From positions 1 through 64,000 of IMG/VR virus record IMGVR_UViG_3300028008_000005: 64,000 nt of DNA; one strand, written 5' to 3'. Position 1 is the first letter of the stretch, and each line of letters begins with the position of its first letter. Below the pieces are notes generated by a model, which had not been told where the DNA came from, ran no database searches, and worked only from the letters and a program-made list of their open reading frames with translations. The stretch is from a virus. The position numbers and the translations under genes were made by a program. This document shows positions 94 to 53,820 of the stretch, piece by piece.

Positions 94-675
94 ATGTCAG
101 AAATAAAAGTTAAGCCAAAAGATAAACCACACTATGTTAACAACAGGGAATTTTCTCTTTCTATTGTAGACTACGTTAAGAGTGTTAACGAAGCAAAAGA
201 AAAGTGCACTGAAGTACCAATTGTTCCTACATATATTGCTACTTGCTTTTTGAAAATATCTGAAGGACTCGCGCATAAGTCTAACTTTGTTCGATACACC
301 TATCGTGAAGAAATGGTTATGGATGCCGTAGAAAATTGTCTTCGTGCAATAAACAACTATAACATTGAAACAAAAACACGTACAGGTATGCCTAATGCAT
401 TTGCCTATTTTACACAAATATGTTATTATGCATTTCTTAGACGAATAGAAAAAGAAAAGAAGCAGCAGGATGTAAAACTTCGATGGATCGAGAAAGCAGG
501 ATTCGAAGACTTTATGGATGACGATGAAGGAGGTAATCACGAATTCTTTGATGAGCTACGTAATCGTATTGATAGAGTTAAGCAATCTGATAACGAGTTT
601 AAAGAATTCTCTAAGAAAGAAAAACAGAAAGCAAAAATTAAAGCCAACTCTGGCGTTGAATTGTTTATGGGTTAA
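94..675 (+). CDS. 55: Late-transcription sigma factor (T4 gp55 homolog)
   Basis: HYVNNREF, NFVRYTYREEMVMDAVENCL and NAFAYFTQICYYAFLRRI motifs; immediately upstream of 47/46 as in T4-like phages. Confidence 0.95.
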   Translation: MSEIKVKPKDKPHYVNNREFSLSIVDYVKSVNEAKEKCTEVPIVPTYIATCFLKISEGLAHKSNFVRYTYREEMVMDAVENCLRAINNYNIETKTRTGMPNAFAYFTQICYYAFLRRIEKEKKQQDVKLRWIEKAGFEDFMDDDEGGNHEFFDELRNRIDRVKQSDNEFKEFSKKEKQKAKIKANSGVELFMG

Positions 676-677
676 TA

Positions 678-1739
678 ATGAAGATTGCTATACTAAATGA
701 TACACACGCAGGTATGCGTAACTCGTCTGACATATTCATTGAATACCAAAGGAAGTTTTATGAAGAGGTCTTTTTCCCTTATCTAAAAGAAAATAACATT
801 AAAGACGTAATCCATCTGGGTGATTACTTTGACCATCGTAAGTTTATAAACTTTAAGGCTCAGAACGCTAATCGTAAGATGTTCCTGGATATATTAAAGC
901 GAGATGGTATTACTATGGATATCATCCCGGGCAATCACGACGTATTTTATAAGAATACAAACGATCTTTGCTCACTAAAAGAACTGCTTGGTTACTACAC
1001 TTCAAACGTTAATATTGTTATGAAGCCAAAGGTTATGGATTATGCCGGATGCGCAGTTGCATTAATTCCGTGGATTAATAGTGAGAACTACGTGGAATCA
1101 ATCGATTTTATTAAAAATTGTAAAGCTTCTATCGTTGGCGCACACCTAGAGCTTGTTGGGTTTGATATGATGAAAGGCGTACCAAATGCACATGGTATGA
1201 CTACAGAAATATTTGACCGCTTTGAAATGGTTCTATCTGGTCATTTTCACACTAAGTCTAGTCGTGGCAATATACATTACCTCGGTTCGCAGATGGAATT
1301 TACGTGGGCTGATTCAGAAGATCCTAAATATTTCCATATATTAGATACTGAAACAAGAGAAATTACCCCTGTTAGAAATCCTAACACGATGTTTGAAAAA
1401 GTGGTTTACAACGACGAAAAAATAGATTATAATAGTTATGATACTAATCACTTAAAAGACAAGTTTGTTAAGATTATTGTAGCTAAAAAGACTGATCCAT
1501 TTCTCTTTGATCGATTTGTGGATAAAGTCCAAAGCGAAGATATTCACGAACTTAAAATTGCAGAAACCTTTGAGGAATTCTCTGGAGATAGCGTAAATGA
1601 TGAATCAGTATCTGTGGAAGATACAACACAGCTATTAGATTCATATATTGATGCTGTAGATACAGAATTAGATAAAGATACATTAAAGGGATTAATGAGG
1701 GGTCTTTTTGTTGAAGCCCAGTCATTGGAAATTGTATGA
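678..1739 (+). CDS. 47: Recombination endonuclease, Mre11/SbcD-like (gp47)
   Basis: Metallophosphoesterase motifs DTH, GDYFD, GNHD, GHFH; synteny. Confidence 0.95.
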   Translation: MKIAILNDTHAGMRNSSDIFIEYQRKFYEEVFFPYLKENNIKDVIHLGDYFDHRKFINFKAQNANRKMFLDILKRDGITMDIIPGNHDVFYKNTNDLCSLKELLGYYTSNVNIVMKPKVMDYAGCAVALIPWINSENYVESIDFIKNCKASIVGAHLELVGFDMMKGVPNAHGMTTEIFDRFEMVLSGHFHTKSSRGNIHYLGSQMEFTWADSEDPKYFHILDTETREITPVRNPNTMFEKVVYNDEKIDYNSYDTNHLKDKFVKIIVAKKTDPFLFDRFVDKVQSEDIHELKIAETFEEFSGDSVNDESVSVEDTTQLLDSYIDAVDTELDKDTLKGLMRGLFVEAQSLEIV

Positions 1740-3463
1740 TAGCTTTTCGTAATATTAAATGGCGTAACTTTCTTTCTACCGGTAATGAAGAAACGCTTAT
1801 TCAGTTAGACCGTAGCCCGACAACTCTTATAGTTGGCCAGAATGGTGCAGGTAAGAGCACATTACTTGATGCTTTATCGTTTGCATTGTTCGGTAAGCCT
1901 CATAGAAATATAAATAAGCCCCAGTTAGTAAATTCAATTAATAATAAGAATTGTGAGGTAGAAGTAGGGTTTGATATAGGTCAGCATAAGTTTGTTGTTA
2001 AGCGTGGTATTAAGCCAGCTAAGTTCGAGATCTGGCAAAACGGTAATATGATTAATCAAAGCTCTGCAGCTAAGGATTATCAGAACTTCTTAGAGCAGAA
2101 TATACTAAAGCTTAATCATAAGTCGTTTCATCAGATTGTGGTTCTTGGGTCTTCTTCTTTTATACCTTTTATGCAGTTACCAACACCTCATCGAAGAGAC
2201 GTAATCGAGGATCTTCTTGATATACAGATATTCTCTAAGATGAGCCAGTTATTAAGAGAGAAAGATTCAAAGCTAAAAGAACAGATAAACGGACTTGCCT
2301 ATGAGCTAGATCTAACCAAAGAAAAGATTACTCTTCAGCAGAAGTATATTCGGGATATAACCGAAATTAACGATGAACAGATCAAAGGCAAGAATAAGGA
2401 AATATCTACAATTGAATCAGAGATAGAATCTCTTAAGAATGACAGCACAGAGTGGAAGGGGTTTATAGATGAAAACCTAGAGTTACTCAATACTAGGTTG
2501 ACTGAATCATCTACCAAGAGAAATCAGTTCCTTAAGTTTGAAGCACAGTTCCAGCAGCAAATCAGTGGCGTAGTAAAAGAAGCTAAGTTCTACGAAGAAA
2601 ATGATAATTGCCCAACGTGCACACAAAAGATTGAACCTGACGTAAAAGATTTAAAGCTGGCAGAGGCTAAAAAGAAAGCAAAGGAGTTAAGTGATGCACT
2701 ATCTTCTGCCAATGGCAAGACTGCAGAGTATGACGCTATTATAGAAGAAGTTAATTCTAGCCTTAGCCATATACAAGATCTGAACAATAATATTTCTGGT
2801 AACACCAAATCTATAAATAAATCCCTAATCAGAATAAAGGCTATTGAAAAAGAGATAGAATCACTTTCTACTACCCATGGAGATTTATCTGAAGCAAATA
2901 GTGAATACAGCAATTTAATAAATTCCAAGGATACATTATCCGAAAACAAGAATCGCATATCATCCGAAAGACTTTATCTATCTGTTGCAGGGGAAATGCT
3001 TAAAGATACTGGTATTAAGACTAAAGTAGTTAAACAATATCTTCCTGTTATGAACACCCTAATTAATAAATACTTACAAGTCTTGGACTTCTTTGTTTCC
3101 TTTAACCTAGATGAAAGTTTCTCAGAGACTATAAAATCCCGTCATCGTGATAACTTTAACTATGCTTCCTTTTCTGAAGGAGAAAAACAAAGGATCGATT
3201 TGGCCTTATTGTTTACCTGGCGTCAGATAGCTAGAATGAAGAACTCTACATCTACCAACTTATTGATATTGGACGAAACCTTTGACTCCTCGCTGGATCA
3301 TGATGGTGTAGAGAACCTTATGAAGATATTGAATACATTGGATAGTAATACCAACGTATTTGTTATATCACATAAAGGGGATTTACTGGATGGTAAGTTC
3401 CGCAATAAGATAACCTTTAAAAAAGAGCATAATTTCTCTAAAATGCTTCTAGCAGGGGATTAA
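1736..3463 (+). CDS. 46: Recombination ATPase, Rad50/SbcC-like (gp46)
   Basis: Walker A GQNGAGKS, coiled coil with CPTC zinc hook, signature FSEGEK, Walker B LILDE. Confidence 0.95.
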   Translation: MIAFRNIKWRNFLSTGNEETLIQLDRSPTTLIVGQNGAGKSTLLDALSFALFGKPHRNINKPQLVNSINNKNCEVEVGFDIGQHKFVVKRGIKPAKFEIWQNGNMINQSSAAKDYQNFLEQNILKLNHKSFHQIVVLGSSSFIPFMQLPTPHRRDVIEDLLDIQIFSKMSQLLREKDSKLKEQINGLAYELDLTKEKITLQQKYIRDITEINDEQIKGKNKEISTIESEIESLKNDSTEWKGFIDENLELLNTRLTESSTKRNQFLKFEAQFQQQISGVVKEAKFYEENDNCPTCTQKIEPDVKDLKLAEAKKKAKELSDALSSANGKTAEYDAIIEEVNSSLSHIQDLNNNISGNTKSINKSLIRIKAIEKEIESLSTTHGDLSEANSEYSNLINSKDTLSENKNRISSERLYLSVAGEMLKDTGIKTKVVKQYLPVMNTLINKYLQVLDFFVSFNLDESFSETIKSRHRDNFNYASFSEGEKQRIDLALLFTWRQIARMKNSTSTNLLILDETFDSSLDHDGVENLMKILNTLDSNTNVFVISHKGDLLDGKFRNKITFKKEHNFSKMLLAGD

Positions 3464-3516
3464 ATCGTCATAAATCGTAACGAGGGGTATACAATAGCCC
3501 TAGTATACGGTAAAAT
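3462..3516 (+). promoter_or_regulatory. Early sigma70-type promoter with inverted copy of the upstream direct-repeat box
   Basis: AAATCGTCATAAATCGTAACG (3462-3482, reverse complement of the box), -35 TATACA 3488-3493, -10 TAAAAT 3511-3516, 17 bp spacer. Confidence 0.65.
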
Positions 3517-3540
3517 GTCTCTATCAAATGGAGAAAACAG

Positions 3541-5745
3541 ATGGTTAAACAATCCAAGTCAATCTTAGCTCGCCTTCTTGCCAACGAGAACATTACTGTT
3601 CAACGTGGCAATTATCCTACTGCGTACTTTGATGTCGAAAAGCGTGTACTTGGTCTTCCACTTTGGGAAGACTTTGGTAAAGACGTTGAAGATCTTCTGA
3701 TAGGCCACGAAGTAGGCCACGCACTCTTTACCCCTGCAGACGGTTGGCATGATTCACCTAAAGATCTTAAGATTCCAAGGTCATTCTTAAATGTCGTAGA
3801 AGATATACGCATTGAAAGAAAAATCCAATCTATGTATCCTGGCCTTGTTAATTCTTTTAAGAAAGGCTATAAAGTATTTTCCGATCAGAACTTCTTTAAG
3901 ACAGAAGGTAGAGACTTACAAGAATATTCTTTAATCGATCGAATAAATCTGAAAGCCAAGCTTCGAGACTTAATTAATGTTGACTTCAGCCTTGAAGAAA
4001 AACCATATGTAGACAAAGCTTTTAGTACCGAAACTTGGGAAGATGTTCTAGAAGCTTCTAAGGCTTTGTATGAATTTATGAAGGATCAAGAAGAAGACGA
4101 AATACCTTCACCTGAAGATTCTAGCGATGAAGAATATCAAGATTTTTCTGATGAAGATCACGAGTCTGAATCATCTTCTACTGGGTCTGAGAGTGATGAA
4201 AAAGATACAGAATCCGGCGGTGATGCTCAGTCTTCCAGCGAAGACGATGATGATGATGATAAAGAGGGTGAAGAGGTAAATCAAGATTCTGTCTCTCAAA
4301 CAGATCAAGAGTCTAACCAAGATCCTGTAGAAGAAGAAAAGGCTGCTAGTGACTCTTCGGATGGGGATGATCAAAGCGAAGAATCTGATATTGAATCAGA
4401 AACAGATATGGCTTTTAGAGAAAACGAATCTAAGCTAGAACTTAAAAGCACAACAGGATCTAATCAGCCTAAATATCTTGCTCCTATGTCAAGATTCGTT
4501 GCTAGAAATATTATTGTACCATACCCTAAATTAAAAGAAGCACGAATTAAAGCAAAAGAATATTGGTACAGCCACACAGAAAGAGAACTATCAGAAGCAT
4601 TTAAAGACTTTGAATCCGATACTAAAAAAGTTACATCTTTGTTAGCAAAAGAGTTTGAGATGCGCAAAGCTGCTTTTAGAACTATTCGAGCTTCAGAATC
4701 TAACTCTGGCACAATTAACGTTAACAAGTTACATAGCTACAAATACGAAGAAGATATCTTTCAAAAGGTAACAAACCTTGCTGATGCCCAATCTCACGGT
4801 ATGGTTATGTTAGTAGATTTTTCTGGATCTATGCAGAGCACAATCGGCGATGTTATTAACCAAACTCTAAGCCTAATATCTTTTTGTAAAAAAGTAAACA
4901 TCCCGTTTGAAGTTTATAGTTTTACTACTCGCCAGCAATGGAATTCTGATATAGATTTGTCAGCGCTAAGCTCTGGAGAAATAGATCCTTCTTCGGTTAG
5001 TATGCTACACCTTCTTAGCTCATCATTTGGTAAAACAGATTATCAAGAAGCCTATAGAGAACTTTTCTATACTGGCTATCTGTTTCAAGAAAATAGAAAT
5101 CAGATCTCCCAGTTAGAAAGGTTGGGAGGAACACCTTTATCTGAAGCCCTTATGGTAGCAGACTTAGTTATTTCTGACTTTAAGAGAAAACACGGGATTC
5201 AAAAAACAAATTTAGTAGTTCTGTCTGATGGCGAAGGCTCACCACCAAGAACAGTTTATGAACGATTAGATCCAAATATTTCGGTATCCCATAGTGAATA
5301 TGCTATTGACTTTAATAATAAGATAGTCAACGTTTACCGTCAATTTATATCTAGTCATTTAGTTAAAGAACTTTCTAAGAAAGGGATAAATACAACTTGT
5401 TTCTATATAACCTCTAATAATAGAGATATTAATTCTTGTTCCTATCTAATCTGGACTAATAGCAATAAGAATGATCATCCGAATCGCCTTGGTATTACTG
5501 AAGTAGATGAGGAGATCAGAAAAGGTTATAAGAAAGAAAGATTAGTTTTATATAAGGATACGTGTGGGTATAACCAGTTCTTTGTTATTAAAGCTTCTGG
5601 TAAATCCCTTGAAACCTCTATAGAGACCTTAGAGATTAGCCCCGATGCTTCTAAGTCACAGATCAAAAAGGCCTTCTCTAAGTACTCTAAGTCTAAGAAG
5701 ACTAACCGTGTCCTAGCCACTAAATTTGCGGAGGCAATAGCTTAA
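3541..5745 (+). CDS. CobT-like protein: N-terminal HExxH domain, acidic linker, C-terminal VWA domain
   Basis: HEVGH, NVVEDIRIE, long D/E/S-rich linker, MIDAS DFSGSM, GGTPL, LSDGE; paired with downstream AAA+ ATPase. Confidence 0.85.
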   Translation: MVKQSKSILARLLANENITVQRGNYPTAYFDVEKRVLGLPLWEDFGKDVEDLLIGHEVGHALFTPADGWHDSPKDLKIPRSFLNVVEDIRIERKIQSMYPGLVNSFKKGYKVFSDQNFFKTEGRDLQEYSLIDRINLKAKLRDLINVDFSLEEKPYVDKAFSTETWEDVLEASKALYEFMKDQEEDEIPSPEDSSDEEYQDFSDEDHESESSSTGSESDEKDTESGGDAQSSSEDDDDDDKEGEEVNQDSVSQTDQESNQDPVEEEKAASDSSDGDDQSEESDIESETDMAFRENESKLELKSTTGSNQPKYLAPMSRFVARNIIVPYPKLKEARIKAKEYWYSHTERELSEAFKDFESDTKKVTSLLAKEFEMRKAAFRTIRASESNSGTINVNKLHSYKYEEDIFQKVTNLADAQSHGMVMLVDFSGSMQSTIGDVINQTLSLISFCKKVNIPFEVYSFTTRQQWNSDIDLSALSSGEIDPSSVSMLHLLSSSFGKTDYQEAYRELFYTGYLFQENRNQISQLERLGGTPLSEALMVADLVISDFKRKHGIQKTNLVVLSDGEGSPPRTVYERLDPNISVSHSEYAIDFNNKIVNVYRQFISSHLVKELSKKGINTTCFYITSNNRDINSCSYLIWTNSNKNDHPNRLGITEVDEEIRKGYKKERLVLYKDTCGYNQFFVIKASGKSLETSIETLEISPDASKSQIKKAFSKYSKSKKTNRVLATKFAEAIA

Positions 5746-7339: not shown

Positions 7340-8006
7340 AGAAACACTCTCTACCCTAAAGAACTTTGCTAGCATAAACGCTAACATTGTAATGAACCCC
7401 GGTAATATCGTAAAGACTATGTCAGAAAGCAAAACTATTATGGGTCAGGCAACTATTCCTGAATCTATACCTAATCAGTTTGGTATATACGACCTAAACG
7501 AATTCCTCGGTGTAGTTAGTATGTTCGATGATCCTACCTTTGACTTTGACCCTAATATGAAATTTGTTAAGGTCTCAGAGGGTAATCGTTCTGTCAAGTA
7601 CTTCTTTTCAGATGCTTCTATCCTAACAACCCCGACTAAAGATATTACTATGCCACCGTGCGAAGTAACCTTTACACTTACCGCTACGGACATGGCAGAT
7701 ATTCGAAAGGCTTCATCTGCTCTTGGAGTAACGGATCTTGTTGTTCGTATTAATCCAGACGAACCACCAAAACTAGTTGTTACAGATACAGAAGATGCTA
7801 CCTCTAATACCTACGAAGTAGATGTTCCTAATTGTTCGGCCGCTGGCGTAGCGTGTAACCTCGTCTTTAACATTGGCAACTTTAAGTTTGTTAACGATGA
7901 CTACGATGTTTGTATCTCGTCTAAACTACTATCTAGCTTTACGGCTAAAAACAATAACACCCAATACTGGGTAGCTCTAGAAAAGAAATCAACCTTTGGA
8001 GGGTAA
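7323..8006 (+). CDS. 45: Sliding clamp (gp45)
   Basis: MKLSEETLSTLKNFASIN, FGIYDLNEFL, C-terminal YWVALE. Confidence 0.95.
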   Translation: MMKLSEETLSTLKNFASINANIVMNPGNIVKTMSESKTIMGQATIPESIPNQFGIYDLNEFLGVVSMFDDPTFDFDPNMKFVKVSEGNRSVKYFFSDASILTTPTKDITMPPCEVTFTLTATDMADIRKASSALGVTDLVVRINPDEPPKLVVTDTEDATSNTYEVDVPNCSAAGVACNLVFNIGNFKFVNDDYDVCISSKLLSSFTAKNNNTQYWVALEKKSTFGG

Positions 8007-8007
8007 T

Positions 8008-8235
8008 ATGTCAGAGCAAGAAGATGGTCTATCAGTCGACGACCTAATGAATGTGTTGAGAGTTATTAACACCTCAACAGAACGTGGAGCCTTTAAGGCT
8101 AATGAGTTATCCTTTGTAGGAAATGTATATGACAAGTTCGCAAGATTTATTAAACAAGCGCAGGAATCAGAGAGCGTTACAGAATCTGATGAAGTCCCAT
8201 CAATTGAAGAAGGTGATGCAAATGGTAGTGAATAA
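8008..8235 (+). CDS. Hypothetical protein
   Basis: ATG after GGAGGG; RGAFKANELSFVG motif resembles small conserved proteins of T4-like phages. Confidence 0.6.
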   Translation: MSEQEDGLSVDDLMNVLRVINTSTERGAFKANELSFVGNVYDKFARFIKQAQESESVTESDEVPSIEEGDANGSE

Positions 8236-8476
8236 TCCAGCGGATCGTACCAAGATTCTAAATGCTATTAAGGAATGGTCTAACTCAGCAACTCGTGCTG
8301 AAGCAGAAAAAGATCTACAAAAAAATATTGTGGGTGATCTTTCTGATGAGGTAGGTATTGATAAAAAGTATATTAATAAGCTTGCTGTTATGTACCATAA
8401 GCAAACCTTTGCCCAGTTCCAGAGCGAAGTAGAAGAAATGGAGGAACTCTACGAATCAGTTACTACTACCACATAG
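8222..8476 (+). CDS. dsDNA-binding protein, T4 DsbA-like
   Basis: Size ~84 aa; KKYINKLAVMYHKQTF..FQSE.EE.EELYE resembles T4 DsbA; start set at ATG 8222. Confidence 0.6.
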   Translation: MVVNNPADRTKILNAIKEWSNSATRAEAEKDLQKNIVGDLSDEVGIDKKYINKLAVMYHKQTFAQFQSEVEEMEELYESVTTTT

Positions 8477-8531
8477 TCTTTTACTTTCTTGTTAAAATGT
8501 GATATAATATACCTTTGTTATGGAGTTCGTT

Positions 8532-9470
8532 ATGAGTAAAGATTTTCTATGGTGTGAAAAGTACAGACCGTCTAAGGTGTCTGAATGTGTTCTCCCAGAT
8601 GGGCTTAAGAGCACATTCAACACCCTAGTCTCTACTGGGGAATTGCCTAATATGCTATTCACTGGTACTGCAGGCGTTGGTAAGACCACAGTTGCTAAAG
8701 CTCTGTGTAAAGAACTGGACCTAGACTATATTGTCGTTAACGGTTCAGAGGAGGGTAACATCGATACACTCCGAAACAAGATTAAGCACTTTGCTTCTAC
8801 AGTCTCTCTTCAAGGAGGCTACAAAGTTGTTATCCTCGACGAAGCAGACTACCTTAATCCGCAATCTACGCAACCCGCTCTCCGTGGGTTCATCGAAGAG
8901 TTTTCTAATAATTGTCGTTTCATTCTAACCTGCAACTTCAAGAATCGAATTATTGAGCCTCTCCACTCTCGATGCTCTGTCTACGAATTCTCTATTCCTA
9001 ACGGAGAAAAGCCTGCTATTGCTGCTGGCTTCTTTGGTCGGGTTATCGATATCCTAAAAAAAGAAAATGTTACGTTTGACCAAAAAGTTGTTGCAACACT
9101 TGTAGAGAAATACTTCCCAGACTTCCGCAGGGTCTTGAACGAACTGCAACGCTATTCTGTATCTGGTACGATCGACTCAGGCTTACTTGTTAACCTAACC
9201 GAAGACAATGTTAAAGTTCTTATATCTTACCTTAAGTCAAAAGACTTCAAGGGTATGCGTAAGTGGGTAGTGGACAATATCGATACAGAGCCTGCAGCTA
9301 TCTTTCGCCAGATATATGATAACCTTAATGCTTACGTTAGTCCCTCTTCTATACCACAAACCGTTCTTATCCTTGCTGACTACCAATATAAGAATGCTTT
9401 CGTTGCAGATCACGAGCTTAATATCGTTGCCTGCATGGTAGAACTAATGGCCAGCGTGGAGTTCTCATAA
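8532..9470 (+). CDS. 44: Clamp loader large subunit (gp44)
   Basis: LWCEKYRP, GTAGVGKT, ILDEAD, SRC motif, FPDFRR. Confidence 0.95.
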   Translation: MSKDFLWCEKYRPSKVSECVLPDGLKSTFNTLVSTGELPNMLFTGTAGVGKTTVAKALCKELDLDYIVVNGSEEGNIDTLRNKIKHFASTVSLQGGYKVVILDEADYLNPQSTQPALRGFIEEFSNNCRFILTCNFKNRIIEPLHSRCSVYEFSIPNGEKPAIAAGFFGRVIDILKKENVTFDQKVVATLVEKYFPDFRRVLNELQRYSVSGTIDSGLLVNLTEDNVKVLISYLKSKDFKGMRKWVVDNIDTEPAAIFRQIYDNLNAYVSPSSIPQTVLILADYQYKNAFVADHELNIVACMVELMASVEFS

Positions 9471-9844
9471 TGAATCCCTTTGACTACCTTAACAGCATTA
9501 ACTCTACCAAGAAAGATATAATGGTAGATGATGCATCTGAGAAAGGCTATAGCCCTTACATGATTAATCGTGGGCTATCCTACTTTAACGACACCGTTTT
9601 ATATGCTAATGAGATGAACCGCTATCACCACCTTGATAACAAGCTTCAATATCATTTTCTTATAAATAGTATCAGACCTAGAAAAAGATTTTCTAAATGG
9701 TTAAAAAAGTCTGATCCAGGTTCGGTGGAAGTAGTAAAAGAATATTATGGCTATAGTAATGAAAAGGCTCGCCAAGTTCTTTATCTATTATCTGATATGC
9801 AAATTAATGAATTGAAGCAGAGGCTATACAAAGGTGGAAAATAA
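9470..9844 (+). CDS. 62: Clamp loader small subunit (gp62)
   Basis: PYMINRGLS, ANEMN, KRFSKW, YYGYSNEKA; between 44 and regA. Confidence 0.92.
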   Translation: MNPFDYLNSINSTKKDIMVDDASEKGYSPYMINRGLSYFNDTVLYANEMNRYHHLDNKLQYHFLINSIRPRKRFSKWLKKSDPGSVEVVKEYYGYSNEKARQVLYLLSDMQINELKQRLYKGGK

Positions 9845-10253
9845 TAATATTAGTGAAGTTGTTGATGACTGGACACCAGGATCAATGCTTGAAGTAACAC
9901 TGAACGAACCAGATGATTTCCTAAAGGTACGTGAGACACTAACCCGTATTGGTGTAGCATCTCGTAAAGATCGCAAATTGTATCAATCTTGTCATATACT
10001 ACACAAGCAAGGTAGATACTTTATTACGCACTTTAAGGAACTATTTCTTCTTGACGCTAAGCCGTCTAACCTAACGGTAAACGATATCGAACGCCGTAAT
10101 ACCATTGCTACGCTTCTATCAGATTGGGGTTTAGTTAGTATGGTAAGCTCTGAGAAACTACAAGTCGCACCTCTAAGACAGATTAAAGTTATATCTCACC
10201 AAGATAAAGCGAATTGGGAACTTTGTCCCAAATATAATATCGGGAACAGTTAA
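9834..10253 (+). CDS. regA: Translational repressor RegA
   Basis: DDFLKVRETLTRIGVAS, LYQSCHILHKQGRYFI.HFKELF, W.L.PKYNIG. Confidence 0.95.
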   Translation: MENNNISEVVDDWTPGSMLEVTLNEPDDFLKVRETLTRIGVASRKDRKLYQSCHILHKQGRYFITHFKELFLLDAKPSNLTVNDIERRNTIATLLSDWGLVSMVSSEKLQVAPLRQIKVISHQDKANWELCPKYNIGNS

Positions 10254-44032: not shown

Positions 44033-44416
44033 ATGAAAAAGCTTCTTTTTATAGCTTCATTGTTACCGGGTATTGCTTTAGCTGATGTGGTTGTTGTTGG
44101 TACTACACCGCGTTATGTTACGATATACCAAAAACAATGTGAGGTAAAAGATATCTTTATTCAGAAATCTTCTTCCTCCACCTTAGTTGGCGGGGTGATT
44201 GGTGGTTTGTTAGGACATCAAGTTGGTAACGGATCTGGTAAAACTGCAGCTACAATTGCTGGAGCTATTATAGGTTCTGATATAGCAAATAAGAATTCTG
44301 AACCAAAGCTAATTCAAAGAGAATATTGTACTGAAGTACCTATTCAAGTACAAAAAGGTGAAACAGTTACCTTTGAGTATAAGGGTAGAATATTTAGACA
44401 AACCTTTGACAACTAA
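44033..44416 (+). CDS. Secreted glycine-zipper 2TM protein
   Basis: Signal peptide MKKLLFIASLLPGIALA; GGVIGGLLGHQVGNGSGKTAATIAGAIIG. Confidence 0.85.
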   Translation: MKKLLFIASLLPGIALADVVVVGTTPRYVTIYQKQCEVKDIFIQKSSSSTLVGGVIGGLLGHQVGNGSGKTAATIAGAIIGSDIANKNSEPKLIQREYCTEVPIQVQKGETVTFEYKGRIFRQTFDN

Positions 44417-44419
44417 GAA

Positions 44420-44720
44420 TTCGTTGAAGCATGTAATAGGAAGTTTGGACTCGGGTGCAAATCCCGATAGCTCCACCAAAAGAACACTGTCGGTGCTGTT
44501 GGGAAGCGCAGATGGACAACACTAGGACGCCGTTCGAATCGGAGCAGTGTTCTTCTGATGGGGCTATTCATAGATTCGACAGACAACTGAAAGCATGTGG
44601 AGAATAGGTGCGGGAGCTACCTTAAATGCAACAAACTCTATAAATGCAAACGATGAAGCATTTGCTCTAGCCGCATAGGTTAGATGAGGTATGGGCACCG
44701 CCTTATAATCAAACGGGCCT
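44420..44720 (+). ncRNA. ssrA: Circularly permuted (two-piece) tmRNA, tag (A)ANDEAFALAA
   Basis: Acceptor piece ...GGACTCGGGTGCAAATCCCGATAGCTCCACCA (ends 44478) precedes the coding piece GGGGCTATTCATAGATTCGAC (starts 44560); acceptor stem has G3-U70; tag codons 44646-44678 after TAAAT; outer ends approximate. Confidence 0.9.
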
Positions 44721-44791
44721 AAAATTCTCACATCAGAGAAACCAAAACTAAATATCCTCACAAGGGATTAATCGGAGATATAAGAAAGCTA

Positions 44792-47586: not shown

Positions 47587-48171
47587 ATGGCAGAATTAAC
47601 AGATCTATTTAGGAATAAAGAGAGTTTTACTGATAAGCCATTAAGTAGAATGTCAGACTATTATCTGTCTGGCCATTTAGATCGTCCAGAGGAATACATT
47701 GAATGGTTTGATCAAATTCGAAATGCGGGTGCTAACGATGTTATTGTTTTGCACATTAATTGCTTCGGTGGAGATCTTTATACGGCAATCCAATTTATTC
47801 GTGTATTGCAAGAATGCCAAGGTATTGTTGTAGCATCTGTAGAAGGTGCTTGCATGTCAGCTGCGACAATGATCTTTCTACAAGCTGATGAGGTAGAGAT
47901 ATCAAATCACTCTGCGTTTATGTTCCACAACTACTCTGGCGGAACAATCGGCAAGGGCGGGGAAATGATCGATCAGTTAACCTACGAGAGATCATGGTCA
48001 GAGAAACTTCTTAAAGAGGTTTATGCTGACTTTCTAAATGAAAAAGAAATAGAATCAATTCTTAATGGTAAAGATCTTTGGATGTCATCAGATGAGGTTA
48101 CAAAGAGAATGGACAGTAAAGCTAAAAAGATTAATAAGGAAATTTCTAAGAAAAGTAAGGCTATAAAATAG
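47587..48171 (+). CDS. ClpP-like serine protease
   Basis: HINCFGGD, CMSAA (catalytic Ser), FMFH (catalytic His), DLWM. Confidence 0.8.
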   Translation: MAELTDLFRNKESFTDKPLSRMSDYYLSGHLDRPEEYIEWFDQIRNAGANDVIVLHINCFGGDLYTAIQFIRVLQECQGIVVASVEGACMSAATMIFLQADEVEISNHSAFMFHNYSGGTIGKGGEMIDQLTYERSWSEKLLKEVYADFLNEKEIESILNGKDLWMSSDEVTKRMDSKAKKINKEISKKSKAIK

Positions 48172-48179
48172 TATAAATA
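48172..48179 (+). promoter_or_regulatory. T4-type late promoter TATAAATA
   Basis: Exact consensus upstream of the kinase/lysozyme operon. Confidence 0.75.
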
Positions 48180-48207
48180 GTATTATATCAACTTGGTAGA
48201 GAATACT

Positions 48208-48876
48208 ATGCTATCTTTCAGCGATTATATTACCGAGGGTGTTAATGATCCTTCTATCTTTAAAGCTGTTTTCCTAGCCGGCGGACCAGGTTCTGGTAAG
48301 TCCTTTATGGTTGGGAAAACAGCTTTAACTGCTTTAGGCTTTAAGCTGATCAACTCTGATCCAGCATTTGAAGCTGCTCTTAAAAAAGCTGGCTTAACTA
48401 CTTCTGCAGACGATATTGCTTCTCCAAAAGGACAAGAACTCCGCGGCAAATCAAAGGTTTTGGTTGGTAAGCAATTAGATCTAGCCATTGATGGCAGGCT
48501 TGGATTAGTAATAGACGGTACAGGCAAAGACTTCGGTAAGATTAAACAGCAGGGAGATGCTCTAAGAGCTATCGGTTATTCTGTTGCTATGATCTTTGTT
48601 AATACTGATCTGGAAACTGCTCTTGCAAGAAACTCTAATCGAGATCGATCATTACCAGACGACATGGTAAGTAAGATGTGGAAAGATGTTCAGAATAACA
48701 TCGGCAAATTTTCTAATTACTTTGGTACTACCTTTATAGTTCTAGATAACTCTGATGGTTCTAATGCAGAAGGTGCAGCAATGGGAGCATATAAGAAGAT
48801 TAAAGCTTGGGCTAAGAAGACGCCTACAGAGAATCCGCGAGTTAAAAAATGGATTGATCGACAAAGAGGTTTATAA
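48208..48876 (+). CDS. P-loop kinase (zeta toxin/polynucleotide kinase-like) with capsid-targeting-like N-terminus
   Basis: MLSFSDYITEG; FLAGGPGSGKS, INSD, VIDGTG, ALARN..R.R. Confidence 0.8.
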   Translation: MLSFSDYITEGVNDPSIFKAVFLAGGPGSGKSFMVGKTALTALGFKLINSDPAFEAALKKAGLTTSADDIASPKGQELRGKSKVLVGKQLDLAIDGRLGLVIDGTGKDFGKIKQQGDALRAIGYSVAMIFVNTDLETALARNSNRDRSLPDDMVSKMWKDVQNNIGKFSNYFGTTFIVLDNSDGSNAEGAAMGAYKKIKAWAKKTPTENPRVKKWIDRQRGL

Positions 48877-49136
48877 TGGACGATATATTTGATTTTGGTT
48901 TTACCGCCGTAGACGAAGCAGAACTTGAAGCAGTACAACAAGCATCCTCACAGCTGCAACAAACTTCCTCAGATGTGCAAGTCCTACAGGCTAAGATAGA
49001 TAAGCTATATAATTCTATTACGCCGCTTTTAACAAACCTAAAGAATAACCCAGAAAAAGAGTACATCCTCTGGCCGAAAAGACTAGAAAAAGTTGAGCAG
49101 TTTGAAACACATTTGCAAAAAATATATATGGAATGA
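48876..49136 (+). CDS. Conserved hypothetical protein
   Basis: FDFGFTAVDE...PLL.NL..NPEKEYI.WP.R. Confidence 0.7.
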   Translation: MDDIFDFGFTAVDEAELEAVQQASSQLQQTSSDVQVLQAKIDKLYNSITPLLTNLKNNPEKEYILWPKRLEKVEQFETHLQKIYME

Positions 49137-49402
49137 TTATGACTAATCAGTGGCATGGTGGTAAAGGCGATAAAGTACGTAAGGTAAATCAAGCTAAATT
49201 TGATTCTAACTGGGATGCTATTTTTGGAAAGAAAGAAGATAAAAACTTTAAAAGAACCCAGCAAGACCTAACAGAATTAAATGGAGATGGTAATCGTCAA
49301 CGAGGTCATTACGGTGAAGACGAAAGCAACCCCGATGAAGATAAAGATCTTAAGTTTATGACAGCTAAAGACTATGTTAGTGGAACAGATAAAGATGAAT
49401 AG
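49133..49402 (+). CDS. Hypothetical protein
   Basis: WHGGKG...NWDAIF. Confidence 0.6.
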   Translation: MIMTNQWHGGKGDKVRKVNQAKFDSNWDAIFGKKEDKNFKRTQQDLTELNGDGNRQRGHYGEDESNPDEDKDLKFMTAKDYVSGTDKDE

Positions 49403-49856
49403 AGAAGCTGTCTACGAACAACTAAAAATTGATGAGGGAGTAGTATATGACATCTATCTCGACCATCTCGGCTATCCAACCTTCGGAGTTGGTCATCTTA
49501 TCCGAGAAAGTGATGAGGAATTCGGCAGGGGAGTTGGTACTGGAGTCAGTGAAGAACGAGTCAGGGCGTGTTTCGAACGTGACCTTGACATTGCAATCAG
49601 CGAATGCTGCACTCTATACGGCGAAGGGAGCTTTGGAGCATATCGAGATGAGGTCCAGCAGGTTCTGGTCAACATGATGTTTAACATGGGCCGACCGAGA
49701 CTCAGTAAATTTAAGAAATTCAATGCTGCTATTGCTAAAGGTGATTGGTTAGAAGCAGCAAAGGAAGGTAGAGACTCACGGTGGTATAATCAAGTTACTA
49801 ATCGTGCAGAAAGATTAATGATAAAACTTGAAATTTTAGAGAGTTTAGATAGATAA
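49395..49856 (+). CDS. T4-type lysozyme (GH24 endolysin)
   Basis: Catalytic E-x8-D-x5-T (DEGVVYDIYLDHLGYPTFGVGH), NMMFNMG, DSRWY.Q...RA.RL. Confidence 0.9.
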   Translation: MNREAVYEQLKIDEGVVYDIYLDHLGYPTFGVGHLIRESDEEFGRGVGTGVSEERVRACFERDLDIAISECCTLYGEGSFGAYRDEVQQVLVNMMFNMGRPRLSKFKKFNAAIAKGDWLEAAKEGRDSRWYNQVTNRAERLMIKLEILESLDR

Positions 49857-49872
49857 TAATTGGAGAATAATA

Positions 49873-50352
49873 ATGGCTAAATTTAATAGATTGCTTGACG
49901 CAGACTTTCAACCACCAAGGACTTGGATTCTTGATCTATCTCTATCTTATGATTCAGATTGTCTAAGCGAAAACGAAGCGAGTTCGCTTAAAGCAGTTGG
50001 TGTAAAAATTAACAAGAATATGAAGATTACCGTACCAAAGAAGTTTAAGACTGATTTGGCCTCTGTTCCCCGTTTCGGATGGATTTTTGTTGCCCCTTTT
50101 GATATTGCCAGAGCAGGTGTAGTACATGATTATATGTATTATTGCATTCGACAATATCGATCTAGTATGGATGAAGCTGGCATTCCAGAAGATCCTTATT
50201 TAATCTCAGAAGCCAAAACTGTTGCTGATAAGGTATTTAAAGAAGCAATGGACGTTTCAGCAGATCATGTTTCTGGCTGGAAAAAATGGGTAGCTTGGAA
50301 AACAGTATCATTGTTTGGATGGAGCTCAATTGTTCCAAGAGACGAACTATAG
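49873..50352 (+). CDS. DUF1353-family protein
   Basis: ITVP..F.TDLASVP, A.VVHDY.Y, AD.VF.EAM. Confidence 0.8.
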   Translation: MAKFNRLLDADFQPPRTWILDLSLSYDSDCLSENEASSLKAVGVKINKNMKITVPKKFKTDLASVPRFGWIFVAPFDIARAGVVHDYMYYCIRQYRSSMDEAGIPEDPYLISEAKTVADKVFKEAMDVSADHVSGWKKWVAWKTVSLFGWSSIVPRDEL

Positions 50353-50669
50353 TGTGGATACTGCTAATTAGAGCAGCCATTACCGGCATATTTGGTTCTG
50401 CATTTGGTAAATGGTTTCTTTCTACCCGCATGGGAATGTGGTTTCAAAAGAAACTAAATGCCTTTATGGAATATCTTGCAGTCAAGTATGATATACAGAT
50501 TGCTAAGAAAGAAGCTAAATGGCGTTCTGATTACCCTCTTTTAGCAGAAAGAATTGATAAGCTTGAAGCTTGGACGCATCCTCCAGTAGCACCCGGTGGA
50601 GCAACAGAATTAGTTAAAGAGATAGAAACTCTAAAAAAAGAAATAGATTTATTAAAACGAAAGAAATAA
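50352..50669 (+). CDS. Hypothetical membrane-associated protein
   Basis: Hydrophobic N-terminus from GTG 50352. Confidence 0.55.
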   Translation: MWILLIRAAITGIFGSAFGKWFLSTRMGMWFQKKLNAFMEYLAVKYDIQIAKKEAKWRSDYPLLAERIDKLEAWTHPPVAPGGATELVKEIETLKKEIDLLKRKK

Positions 50670-50680
50670 AGGAGGATGTT

Positions 50681-51976
50681 ATGAGAAAGTTACTTACAAT
50701 GATTACATTTTTTCTTGTTGGCTTTGTTGCTGGCGGAGTTAATGGTCAAACATATACAGAAGAAGTAGCAAGCATTATTAACGAAAACTGCGTGGTCTGT
50801 CACAGAGCAGGCGGCATTGGACCTATGAGCTTTGAAACATATGAGCAAGTAAGACCATGGGCACCACTTATCCAAATGAGAGTGGCTAACCGTGAAATGC
50901 CTCCCTATGCATACGATCATGGAATTGGTATTCAAGACTTGCAAGGTGACTGGCGACTATCACAGGATGACATAGACACTGTTGTTGCGTGGGTCAATGA
51001 AGGATCTCAATACGGCAATCCAGACACAGTATTACAGTCAGTTGACCTAGGCGATCCAGAAGCATGGAGCTTCGAAGGAGACTTTGGAGTACCAGATGCA
51101 ATCATACCAAGTGTAGCAATCGATATTCCGGCAAACGGTAACGACCTATGGCATAAGCATTTAGTACCTACAGGCCTTACTGAAGATCGCTGCATTAAAG
51201 CAGTACAGGTAAAGCCTCGTGGTGATGCAAAAGCAGTAGTGCATCACGCTAACTCCAATGTTGTTATTGACGGAGGTCGTGAAGGTATGCTCACGGAGTA
51301 TGCTATGGGAAAGTGGGGAGAGATCGTCCCAGAGGGAGTATGCAGGCTACTTCCAGGAAACGCAGAAATCAGATGGGATATTCACATGTTCCCGGGTGGA
51401 CTTGGAGCAATGGCACCCGGATCAGTTATCAAAGACAACGTGGTAGAGATTGGTCTTTGGTTATATACCGAAGAGGAAAGCCAAGGATTGAAATACAAAC
51501 AAGATTTGAGTCTGTATCGCCTAGGCAACCAGGACGATATTACGATACCCCCAAATGGTTACTACATGACTCAAGGTTTACACAGTTTTGATCATCCAGT
51601 TAGACTAGATAGTTTTCAACCACATGGACACTTGCGTATGAACGCAGCAAGTTTGGAAATATTCTATCCAGAGACAGGACGCACAGAACAGATTAGCCAA
51701 GTAAGTAATTGGAGTGCAACATGGCATCACAGTCATTTATATGACCCAGATGTAGCACCACTCTTACCAGCAGGCGCAGTGATTGTTCTGAAGCAATGGT
51801 ACGATAACACATCAGACAATCCAAATAACCCAGATCCAGATATGTGGGTAATGGGTGGCTCAAGAACAGGCGATGAGATGACGCACGCGTGGCTTGCTAT
51901 TACGCATCTAGATGACGAAGGATATAATAGGCTAAAAGATGAAAGAAATGAAAGAGTTGAGCTTGCTAATAGATAA
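50681..51976 (+). CDS. Secreted cytochrome c / copper type II (PHM/DBM-like) monooxygenase, paralog 1
   Basis: Signal peptide; heme motif CVVCH with MPP; CuH ligands VVHH and DIH; CuM ligands PHGH and DEM. Confidence 0.8.
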   Translation: MRKLLTMITFFLVGFVAGGVNGQTYTEEVASIINENCVVCHRAGGIGPMSFETYEQVRPWAPLIQMRVANREMPPYAYDHGIGIQDLQGDWRLSQDDIDTVVAWVNEGSQYGNPDTVLQSVDLGDPEAWSFEGDFGVPDAIIPSVAIDIPANGNDLWHKHLVPTGLTEDRCIKAVQVKPRGDAKAVVHHANSNVVIDGGREGMLTEYAMGKWGEIVPEGVCRLLPGNAEIRWDIHMFPGGLGAMAPGSVIKDNVVEIGLWLYTEEESQGLKYKQDLSLYRLGNQDDITIPPNGYYMTQGLHSFDHPVRLDSFQPHGHLRMNAASLEIFYPETGRTEQISQVSNWSATWHHSHLYDPDVAPLLPAGAVIVLKQWYDNTSDNPNNPDPDMWVMGGSRTGDEMTHAWLAITHLDDEGYNRLKDERNERVELANR

Positions 51977-52089
51977 TCGCAATAGGTTAGATATAGATAG
52001 GGATTGGGAAGAATACCAAGAACTAACTGAAGAGATCCAACTTTTACAAAATGATTTAGTAACACTATCAATTATGGGAGAAGATTTAA

Positions 52090-53334
52090 ATGAATAAAAT
52101 AAACGCTGCGGCAGGAACATTAGGTGTTCTATTGCTAATGCTTGGACTTAGAGCAGAAGCGCATGACGATGTAAAGATCGACTACGCAGAGAACGTAGCC
52201 CCTATCTTTGTAGAACAATGTCAAAGCTGCCACCGTGAAGGTGGTATTGCACCGTGGGCAATGAGTGACTTTAGAATGTTGCAAGCATTCGCCCCTGCAA
52301 TCCGTGAAGCAGTTACAACATTAGAAATGCCACCCGGGCAGATTGATCGCAAATATGCAAAGGATATTATCAATCATCGCACACTCAGTCATACAGAAAT
52401 GGAGACTATTGTACAGTGGATTGATGCAGGCGCTCCTGTCGAAGGTGACAGAGATCCGCTAACAGAAACTGTATACTCAACATCAGAGTGGGTACACGGT
52501 GAGCCTGATATGATTGTCTATGTACCAGCACAAGAAATTCCTGCTGGTCCTTCTGCGATTCCATATCGTTATGTTGGTGTAGACTTAGGACTAACTGAAG
52601 ACAAATGGCTTCGTGGTTCAGAGTTTTTGCCTTCAGAGCCTACAGTAATGCATCACATGCTAAACTCAGTAAGTGTACCGGGAGAGCGTAATGGCAACAT
52701 CTTAGGCACACAAGGTGGCGGACAAGAAGAAATGAACTACGCTAGTGTGAGTGCATATGTACCAGGAGGCGATCCAGAATTTTATGACGAGAACACTGGT
52801 GGTTTGTTAAGAGCAGGTTCAACAGTAAACTTACAGTTACACTACACACCAGACGGCAGAGCAAGAACTGACGAAGCAAGAATTGGTTTGTACTTTCACG
52901 ATGAAGGTGTAGTACCAGAAGAGAGAATGGCAGGCGACTGTGCTTGTATCTTCCCTAACAACTGGACAACTATCCCTGCATTTGATCCTAACTTTGTACA
53001 AACAGCAGAAGTAGTTCTAAAGCAAGATGTAATGCTGCACACATTCTTACCACACATGCACTTCCGTGGCAAGAGTATGAAAGCAACTGCATTCTATCCA
53101 GACGGCACTGTAGAAGAACTAATTGATGTACCAAGATATGAATATGCTTGGCAACTATCATACACGTGGAGAGAGCCTAAGTTCTTACCTGTAGGTACAA
53201 GACTGTTTGTAGAGGGAGCATTTGACAACTCAGCAGAGAATAAAATGAATCCCGATCCTAGCAGAGACGTACCGTGGGGTCAGATGAGCGAAGATGAAAT
53301 GTTCTTTGGAGCATTTACTTGGAAAAACCTATAA
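52090..53334 (+). CDS. Secreted cytochrome c / copper type II monooxygenase, paralog 2
   Basis: Signal peptide; CQSCH with MPP; VMHH, QLHY, PHMH, DEM. Confidence 0.82.
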
Positions 53335-53344
53335 GGGGACTAAT

Positions 53345-53416
53345 ATGTGGACTAAACCAGCTTATGAAAATATAAGACTTGGATTTGAAATCACTATGTA
53401 TTTTAGTGTTAGATAA
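53345..53416 (+). CDS. pqqA: Pyrroloquinoline quinone precursor peptide PqqA
   Basis: Read manually: [23 protein letters not shown] (23 aa) with Glu15-x3-Tyr19; AAGGGGA RBS; matches the gammaproteobacterial PqqA pattern MW.KP.Y...R.GFE.TMYF..R. Confidence 0.92.
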
Positions 53417-53445
53417 TCTATAACTTGTCAAACTAGGAAAAATAA

Positions 53446-53775
53446 ATGTCAGAAGCAGAAATAAAAAAATCTGGTCATCATCCTGCCGATACAAATGGTG
53501 ATGGTAAAGTAAGCCCTAAAGAACAAGATATGTACATGGAATTTAGGCGTAAAGAGCTTGAAGACCAAGATGCAATGCGGGATGCACAAAGGAAGATGGC
53601 ATGGTTTGCTTTAGGTGGTATGCTTCTTTATCCTTTTGCAGTTGTAGTCGCATCCATTGCAGGATTAGACCAAGCTCAGGCAACTCTCGGTGATATGGCA
53701 CCTACATATTTTGTTGCTGTTGCTGGTATTGTTGCTGCCTTTTTTGGGGCTCAGGCATTTGCTAAGAAACCATAA
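53446..53775 (+). CDS. Two-TM membrane protein with EF-hand-like loop (holin-like)
   Basis: DTNGDGKVSPKE EF-hand loop; two hydrophobic helices; AAFFGAQA. Confidence 0.65.
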   Translation: MSEAEIKKSGHHPADTNGDGKVSPKEQDMYMEFRRKELEDQDAMRDAQRKMAWFALGGMLLYPFAVVVASIAGLDQAQATLGDMAPTYFVAVAGIVAAFFGAQAFAKKP

Positions 53776-53779
53776 TAAG

Positions 53780-53820
53780 ATTAATACGGGTAGATTTGCC
53801 TTGAATCTACCCGTATTAAT
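53780..53820. terminator. Perfect 17 bp inverted repeat between convergent operons (bidirectional terminator)
   Basis: ATTAATACGGGTAGATT-TGCCTTG-AATCTACCCGTATTAAT. Confidence 0.75.

Follow-up and report, generated by a model that had tools for sequence, protein, structure and literature searches.

A lone pqqA gene in a marine T4-like phage and its probable role as an auxiliary source of the PQQ precursor peptide

A 23-codon gene that lies among phage genes in a marine T4-like virus encodes what is, as judged from its sequence, a genuine full-length PqqA, which retains the glutamate and the tyrosine that become the cofactor PQQ. Comparison of its alleles shows that purifying selection maintains the gene within a sub-lineage of marine relatives of the phage, and it is likely to be a functional, orphan pqqA which serves as an auxiliary metabolic gene by supplying the host pathway with the precursor that is consumed. 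Viral pqqA has itself been published previously; the DNA described here adds a marine T4-like member. This DNA, referred to below as the window, is the first 64 kb (64,000 nucleotides) of a linear IMG/VR virus record of 114,689 bases, whose completeness is estimated by CheckV at 64%.

Introduction

In the synthesis of PQQ, the peptide PqqA is bound through its N-terminal leader by the chaperone PqqD, and the radical-SAM enzyme PqqE then joins its glutamate to its tyrosine by a cross-link; trimming and oxidation of the product are carried out by a peptidase together with PqqB and PqqC. PqqA is a stoichiometric substrate of this pathway, one peptide being used for each PQQ, and some methylotrophs have several copies of pqqA. 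The supply of a consumable component of host metabolism by an auxiliary phage gene is familiar from the psbA gene of cyanophages.

Viral PqqA was proposed as an auxiliary metabolic gene in viruses of methylotrophs in Lake Baikal, in a paper that cites the same conversion of PqqA to PQQ (Coutinho et al. 2020, PMC7678222), and PqqA is listed among the viral genes of reservoir sediments in a 2026 study (PMC13188868). An earlier, sequence-only reading of the window had known of no well-characterised phage pqqA; as a claim of novelty this was overstated in view of these publications, but it stands in the sense that no phage pqqA is known to have been studied experimentally. In the literature on OM43 phages no paper noting pqqA was found, and the paper describing the Methylophilales phage Melnitz mentions PQQ solely as a medium supplement, added at 1 nM.

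Results

The pqqA gene and its product

The gene runs on the + strand from an ATG at 53345 to a TAA at 53414-53416, and its start codon is separated by a gap of 10 nt from the TAA (53332-53334) of the monooxygenase gene that precedes it (Table 1). The sequence-only reading had described a 23-codon peptide with a ribosome binding site, and the sequence reads as it stated; the start that it gave, 53335, is the first base past the upstream stop codon, and the ATG lies 10 nt further on. The place of the Shine-Dalgarno-like element is occupied by AAGGAGA or GAGGAGA in all of the distinct related loci (8/8).

Table 1. Positions in the window of pqqA and of the features considered with it
Feature	Position	Strand	Description and basis
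Candidate T4-type late promoter, TATAAATA	48172..48179	+	pattern search; at the start of the + strand block whose last two genes are pqqA and the 109-aa gene
Monooxygenase A, haem-c/copper, 431 aa	50681..51976	+	paralogue of B; sequence motifs; putatively exported
Monooxygenase B, haem-c/PHM-fold copper, 414 aa	52090..53334	+	CxxCH, ligand positions, Foldseek; directly upstream of pqqA
Shine-Dalgarno-like AAGGGGA	53333..53339	+	overlaps the stop codon of monooxygenase B; 5 nt before the pqqA ATG
pqqA	53345..53416	+	23 codons and stop; E15 and Y19 in E-I-T-M-Y; HMM scores; same place in 17 viral loci
109-aa protein gene	53446..53775	+	3' of pqqA; about 72% nucleotide identity to genes of Melnitz and HTVC008M
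Hairpin, 17-bp stem	53780..53820	.	terminator scan; between convergent gene blocks; likely end of a transcription unit

The peptide is matched by the NCBIfam equivalog model TIGR02107 at 49.1 bits (E 3.4e-13; cut-off 20) and by the Pfam model PqqA, PF08042, at 41.2 bits (cut-off 21.1). With the curated cut-offs of both family models exceeded, and with a glutamate and a tyrosine placed as E-x-x-x-Y within a short peptide, the earlier identification of the product as a PqqA with E15 and Y19 as its reactive pair is borne out. The W-T-K-P leader is invariant in the phage alleles and identical to that of PqqAs from bacterial operons. A search of PDB sequences with the peptide gave no match, and PHROGs contains no family for the peptide or for the neighbouring proteins.

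Linkage to pqqBCDE, which is usual for bacterial pqqA but not strictly defining, orphan copies being known, is not found here. The whole 114,689-base record has a single PqqA match, namely the gene at 53345, and in this record, which is about 64% complete, pqqB, pqqC, pqqD, pqqE and PQQ alcohol dehydrogenase have no match, so that the earlier statement that pqqB-E are missing holds for the window and for the record as a whole.

The gene had also been described as missed by the open reading frame track. At this place the mechanical list does report a single frame only, of 40 codons, which begins at an ATG at 53294 inside the upstream gene, and because this in-gene frame is all that is listed, pqqA would go unreported by a normal gene caller.

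Phage genes around pqqA

The window encodes a T4-type DNA polymerase, a gp46-like nuclease subunit, a DnaB/gp41-like helicase and a ribonucleotide reductase. The DNA polymerase has at most 54.6% identity to that of any GenBank phage, its best matches being members of the Kyanoviridae. On the 5' side of pqqA, the same strand carries genes for a phage lysozyme and a DUF1353 protein and two large genes. The 109-aa gene on the 3' side is common, at about 72% DNA identity, to Methylophilales phage Melnitz, Pelagibacter phage HTVC008M and Roseobacter phage CRP-207; its product has an EF-hand-like DxNGDG motif (DTNGDGKVS), with a weak match to EF-hand_5, and a hydrophobic C-terminal half. The setting of pqqA is thus that expected of an auxiliary gene, a metabolic gene between phage genes within a bona fide phage genome. 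In one of the related viral loci, T4 gp15 lies nearby.

Conservation among related phages

A scan of IMG/VR with monooxygenase B yielded 113 viral relatives, from which 80 loci were kept. The tandem monooxygenase pair is present in nearly all of them, and pqqA follows the pair directly in 17 of the 80, the other 63 having no pqqA. When all six-frame open reading frames of the 80 loci were searched with an HMM, scores of at least 60 bits were obtained for these 17 loci, and every other score was below 12 bits. The lack of intermediate scores indicates that there are no decayed copies of pqqA among the 80 loci, and it also argues against a selection bias in the 17 loci, which were recognised by a pattern requiring both E and Y.

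The 17 loci represent seven peptide alleles, in which an alignment shows 15 invariant residues: M1, W2, T3, K4, P5, Y7, R11, L12, G13, F14, E15, T17, M18, Y19 and R23. Conservation of the ExxxY motif, which had been proposed as a check, is therefore seen in seven of seven alleles, with the qualification that the pattern demanded E15 and Y19; in larger sets of alleles the invariance of these two residues is circular, because the search pattern fixes the key residues. The related alleles score 39-48 bits on TIGR02107. For the seven DNA alleles, which are few and short, pS is 0.49 and pN is 0.10, giving a pN/pS of 0.21, and third codon positions vary far more often (16/23) than second codon positions (3/23).

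Comparison of otherwise syntenic phages that have or do not have pqqA shows that the gene is a gain/loss cassette of about 100 bases. In two loci (L018 and L084) the sequence after the monooxygenase is the one that follows pqqA in three others (L016, L017 and L040), yet pqqA is absent, and in a further two (L039 and L048) the monooxygenase gene is followed directly by the 109-codon gene, again with no pqqA. Because 63 of the 80 related loci do without the gene, any benefit from it must be conditional. As a separate observation, the contigs of RNA run X5 part from the window at 53324, at the monooxygenase stop, and again at 53478, a short way into the 109-aa gene, as though variants with no pqqA were present in one and the same sample.

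pqqA in other viruses and in cultured phages

A degenerate DNA pattern for W-T-K-P-x-Y...R-[LF]-G-F-E-[VI]-T-M-Y matched at least 120 viral contigs. Among the matches listed, no pqqB-E homologue was present in 80 viral pqqA loci, and the monooxygenase was present in eight of these 80 and absent from 72. Two peptide types are prominent among the viral PqqAs, the R-L-G-F-E type of the window and the E-M-R-F-G-F-E-V type of cultured Methylophilales phages.

A tblastn search of GenBank phages found pqqA in Melnitz (four isolates), Venkman, P19250A, MEP301, MEP401, MEP402 and one spring-water podovirus. The copies extracted from Melnitz, Venkman, P19250A, MEP301, MEP402 and the podovirus each have a ribosome binding site and score 34-41 bits on TIGR02107, while that of MEP401 is represented by its tblastn match alone. 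The records of the Acinetobacter phage MD-2021a (CAKLQF020000010.1 and CAKLQH020000055.1) were rejected as a source of phage pqqA: they are pieces of bacterial chromosome with fur, ppk and pqqABCDE.

Every cultured Methylophilales phage in the tblastn results has a pqqA that is either unannotated or hidden under a call on the opposite strand. In Melnitz the gene lies just before tRNA-Leu (MZ577097.1, approximately 76134-76205, + strand; 3995-4066 of the extracted locus, L002; 34 bits), and the record has a 31-codon "hypothetical protein" annotated over it on the opposite strand. Gene callers skip reading frames of 23 codons, which is why the annotated genomes of the cultured OM43 and LD28 phages do not show pqqA, and the earlier expectation that standard gene callers would miss pqqA is matched by its unannotated state in Melnitz, Venkman, P19250A and MEP301/402.

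The host

Among 401 genomes from the phylum of one of the monooxygenase-bearing MAGs, the best PqqA is identical to the phage peptide at 17 of 23 residues. Among 401 genomes from the order of a monooxygenase-bearing Pseudohongiella MAG (Pseudomonadales in the NCBI taxonomy), three have PqqAs identical to phage alleles at 19-21 of 23. In these three genomes pqqA is followed by pqqB, pqqD, pqqE and pqqC, with pqqE and pqqC above their cut-offs, and all three have matches to PQQ dehydrogenases, two of them above a strict cut-off. The operon PqqA of this marine order agrees with the phage PqqA in length, in core and at 20-21 of 23 residues. The bacterial gene is the first of a pqqA-B-D-E-C operon, whereas the phage copy stands alone, and at the DNA level the two are identical at 50 of 69 positions, the phage copy being richer in AT.

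These similarities point to a marine gammaproteobacterium of the Pseudomonadales order, with a complete pqq operon, as the probable host. The sequence-only reading had asked that the predicted host be examined for pqqBCDE and PQQ dehydrogenases, and both are present in the genomes with the closest PqqAs, through which the host itself is reached indirectly. Two other routes to the host were tried and rejected: the tmRNA of the phage is of a permuted form common to its phage group, a form that by the account in the Melnitz paper does not follow the host, and the best match of the DNA polymerase, at 54.6%, is to Phage C48C1, for which no host is recorded.

One of the three, a 3.4-Mb genome of the Pseudohongiella order (G630; loci L271-L276), has nine monooxygenase paralogues, three of them consecutive on one contig and the best at 48% identity, and more than 10 PQQ-dehydrogenase loci. 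A distance of 2.5 kb separates one of its monooxygenase genes from the gene for a membrane-type PQQ dehydrogenase, and a gene on the opposite strand lies in between.

The neighbouring monooxygenases

The two proteins encoded upstream of pqqA have 28% identity to each other in an alignment, and each has a start resembling a signal peptide and one CxxCH motif. Across 15 aligned homologues, viral and bacterial, CxxCH and six copper-ligand positions (HH..H and HxH..M) are invariant. An AlphaFold model of B (pLDDT 67) was compared by Foldseek with the PDB, and its top 30 matches are all peptidylglycine alpha-hydroxylating monooxygenase (PHM) or dopamine beta-hydroxylase (DBH), the best having an E value of 6e-9 and a TM score of about 0.52. 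The proteins accordingly have, as far as the fold can be judged from this model, the two domains of PHM, with the ligand sets of CuH (H,H,H) and of CuM (H,H,M). A protein atlas places the monooxygenase in clusters named "cytochrome c domain" and Cu2_monoox_C. No Pfam model reaches its threshold against A or B, and a search of PDB sequences with B gave nothing useful. The description of the two upstream genes as monooxygenases, which the sequence-only reading had used, is justified by the motifs, the invariant ligands, the Foldseek matches and the atlas clusters taken together.

The nearest named bacterial homologues are from Gammaproteobacteria, Pseudohongiella and Pseudomonadales MAGs. In bacterial homologues (for example 7458-9155 of locus L092) an additional N-terminal AhpC/TSA (redoxin) domain, absent from the phage versions, precedes the haem-c and copper domains. 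The GC content is 0.44 in the monooxygenase genes (51000-52999) and 0.37-0.40 around them, an excess which fits acquisition from a GC-richer host. The monooxygenases are best regarded as separate cargo that would have come from the same kind of host as pqqA.

Transcription signals and RNA libraries

The candidate late promoter and the hairpin listed in Table 1 enclose a block of genes, of which pqqA and the 109-aa gene are the last two. Across the window as a whole there is no enrichment of TATAAATA, and scans for sigma-70 promoters and for terminators gave counts no higher than those of shuffled controls.

All or part of the stretch is present in 20 public runs, 15 of which are recorded as RNA, from 12 studies in all; the RNA evidence consists of assembled contigs, which show neither strand nor level nor a single transcript. 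Over 47-59 kb, the contigs of RNA run X1 cover 48329-53776, with none in 47802-48202 and none just after 53776, and in the contigs of run X5 a depth of 25-40 drops to about 1 past 53877. Single contigs of X1 and X5, which come from two studies, bridge the end of the monooxygenase gene, pqqA and the 109-aa gene. In two other RNA runs, X2 and X3, the whole 12-kb stretch is covered by contigs of 7-10 kb, which suggests carry-over of DNA and makes these runs uninformative about transcription. The coincidence of the X1 and X5 boundaries with TATAAATA and the hairpin hints weakly at a late transcription unit to which pqqA would belong.

Discussion

The reading of phage pqqA as an auxiliary gene is the best available because the gene is under purifying selection, because its ribosome binding site is kept, because it is found on many viral contigs and because it is present independently in phages of PQQ-dependent hosts. 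The retention of the conserved residues, together with the near-identity to operon PqqAs, has as its simplest reading that the phage peptide could be converted to PQQ by the enzymes of the host. The gene would probably be transcribed as part of the block that extends from the late-type promoter at about 48172 to the hairpin at 53780-53820. Its product would be bound by host PqqD and cross-linked by host PqqE, and PqqB, PqqC and the peptidase would complete maturation. Host transcription shut-off of the T4-like kind would otherwise cut the supply of a short-lived substrate peptide. Since one peptide is used per PQQ, phage PqqA would keep PQQ coming after shut-off for the periplasmic quinoprotein dehydrogenases of the host.

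An assembly chimera or host contamination at the pqqA spot is so improbable that it carries practically no weight. The monooxygenase genes do stand out from their surroundings in GC content (0.44 vs 0.38), but pqqA has phage genes on either side, the same junctions are found in 17 independent viral contigs from different samples, and contigs from four public runs span the junctions at a likeness of at least 99%; the host chimera that the sequence-only reading had named as a possible refutation is thereby countered. The patchy occurrence of pqqA in close relatives and the ease with which it is gained and lost are what would be seen if it were a neutral passenger, a scrap of host DNA taken up with other cargo and retained although useless to the phage. 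This is nevertheless unlikely, given a pN/pS of 0.21 at a pS of 0.49, a preserved ribosome binding site, the lack of decayed copies among the 80 loci and the intact copies in several unrelated phage types. A decoy function, in which the phage peptide would bind host PqqD or PqqE and thus lower PQQ or divert the radical-SAM machinery, is very improbable: E15, Y19 and the whole core are invariant, 20-21 of 23 residues are identical to those of bacterial operon PqqAs, and a peptide with a normal equivalog score (49 bits vs 20) should simply be converted by the host enzymes, although the invariant N-terminal W-T-K-P would also suit binding to PqqD and the phage record has no processing genes. A decoy would in addition be free to lose E or Y, which no allele has done, in a set of alleles found by a regular expression that demanded both.

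The remaining alternative concerns the relation of pqqA to its neighbours. A single redox chain, in which more PQQ would raise quinoprotein dehydrogenase activity and electrons would pass by way of periplasmic cytochromes into the haem-c domains that the phage monooxygenases carry, is suggested by the 10 nt gap between genes of the same orientation with no terminator between them, by the RNA-library contigs that bridge monooxygenase B and pqqA, and by G630, which combines the same PqqA type with nine monooxygenase paralogues and more than 10 PQQ-dehydrogenase loci, one pair being 2.5 kb apart. The two kinds of gene are, however, largely found apart. The monooxygenase pair occurs with no pqqA in 63 of the 80 related viral loci, there is no monooxygenase in 72 of the 80 viral pqqA loci among the matches listed, five bacterial genomes with monooxygenase homologues have no pqqA match, and the nearby PQQ dehydrogenase of G630 lies beyond an opposite-strand gene and hence not in an operon. 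A bacterial link between the monooxygenases and PQQ was accordingly rejected as evidence for such a chain (pqqA in 0/5 genomes, one homologue neighbourhood with no PQQ genes, and the non-operonic pair of G630), and the chain has a low probability. It is quite unlikely that the two monooxygenase genes and pqqA together make up a periplasmic redox module carried by the phage, in which extra PQQ would drive the quinoprotein dehydrogenases of the host and their electrons would reach the phage oxygenases at the cytochrome c domains; such a module, if true, would resemble the coupling that has been proposed between methanol dehydrogenase and particulate methane monooxygenase.

The supply of precursor by the phage, which is the preferred reading, has its closest published counterparts in the Baikal and sediment viruses, where an orphan pqqA on a viral contig was likewise read as auxiliary to the PQQ-dependent dehydrogenases of the host. 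Those viruses are from freshwater and sediment, with Methylophilaceae as the predicted hosts in the Baikal case, whereas the present phage is marine and T4-like. In contrast to the Baikal case, the PqqA of the window is of the R-L-G-F-E type, its nearest bacterial relatives are in the Pseudomonadales order rather than the Methylophilaceae, and the record has no methanol dehydrogenase gene. The copies in cultured Methylophilales phages resemble that of the window in their length of 23-24 codons, their own ribosome binding site, their intact ExxxY, their scores above the TIGR02107 cut-off, the absence of pqqB-E and the failure of annotation to report them. They differ in being of the E-M-R-F-G-F-E-V-T-M-Y-V type, with 12-14 of 23 residues identical to the window PqqA, and in lying at other genomic places; their hosts, moreover, are known methylotrophs, while that of the window phage is a putative one. 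As with cyanophage psbA, what the phage would provide is no whole pathway, only the component of a host energy system that turns over rapidly, but psbA encodes a protein subunit, while the product here is a 23-residue substrate peptide for the synthesis of a cofactor, known so far from sequence.

Because PqqA is the sole part of PQQ synthesis that is consumed, a phage copy of 72 bases would be a minimal way to sustain the cofactor pathway of the host and the periplasmic dehydrogenases that depend on it. With the present results, viral pqqA reaches beyond methylotroph phages into a marine T4-like lineage with a PqqA type suggestive of hosts of the Pseudomonadales order, and the gene is seen to behave as a small cassette that is gained and lost. 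The cultured OM43 and LD28 phages that carry pqqA are ready laboratory systems in which the idea of precursor supply can be tested.

Additional features of the phage record and of a related locus

A circularly permuted, two-piece tmRNA was found by ARAGORN on the + strand at 44386-44769, with the tag ANDEAFALAA, and is matched there by the Rfam model tmRNA_permuted at 97.3 bits (gathering score 47). A permuted tmRNA of this kind is described in the Melnitz paper for Melnitz and for pelagimyophages. In one large related viral record (IMGVR_UViG_3300024228_000554, 339,794 bases; 255-4112 and 7898-9970 of locus L012), the corresponding island is preceded by genes for CsgG, a FecR-domain protein and a curlin-repeat protein and followed by a gene for a CHASE2-adenylate/guanylate cyclase, with T4 gp15 further along.
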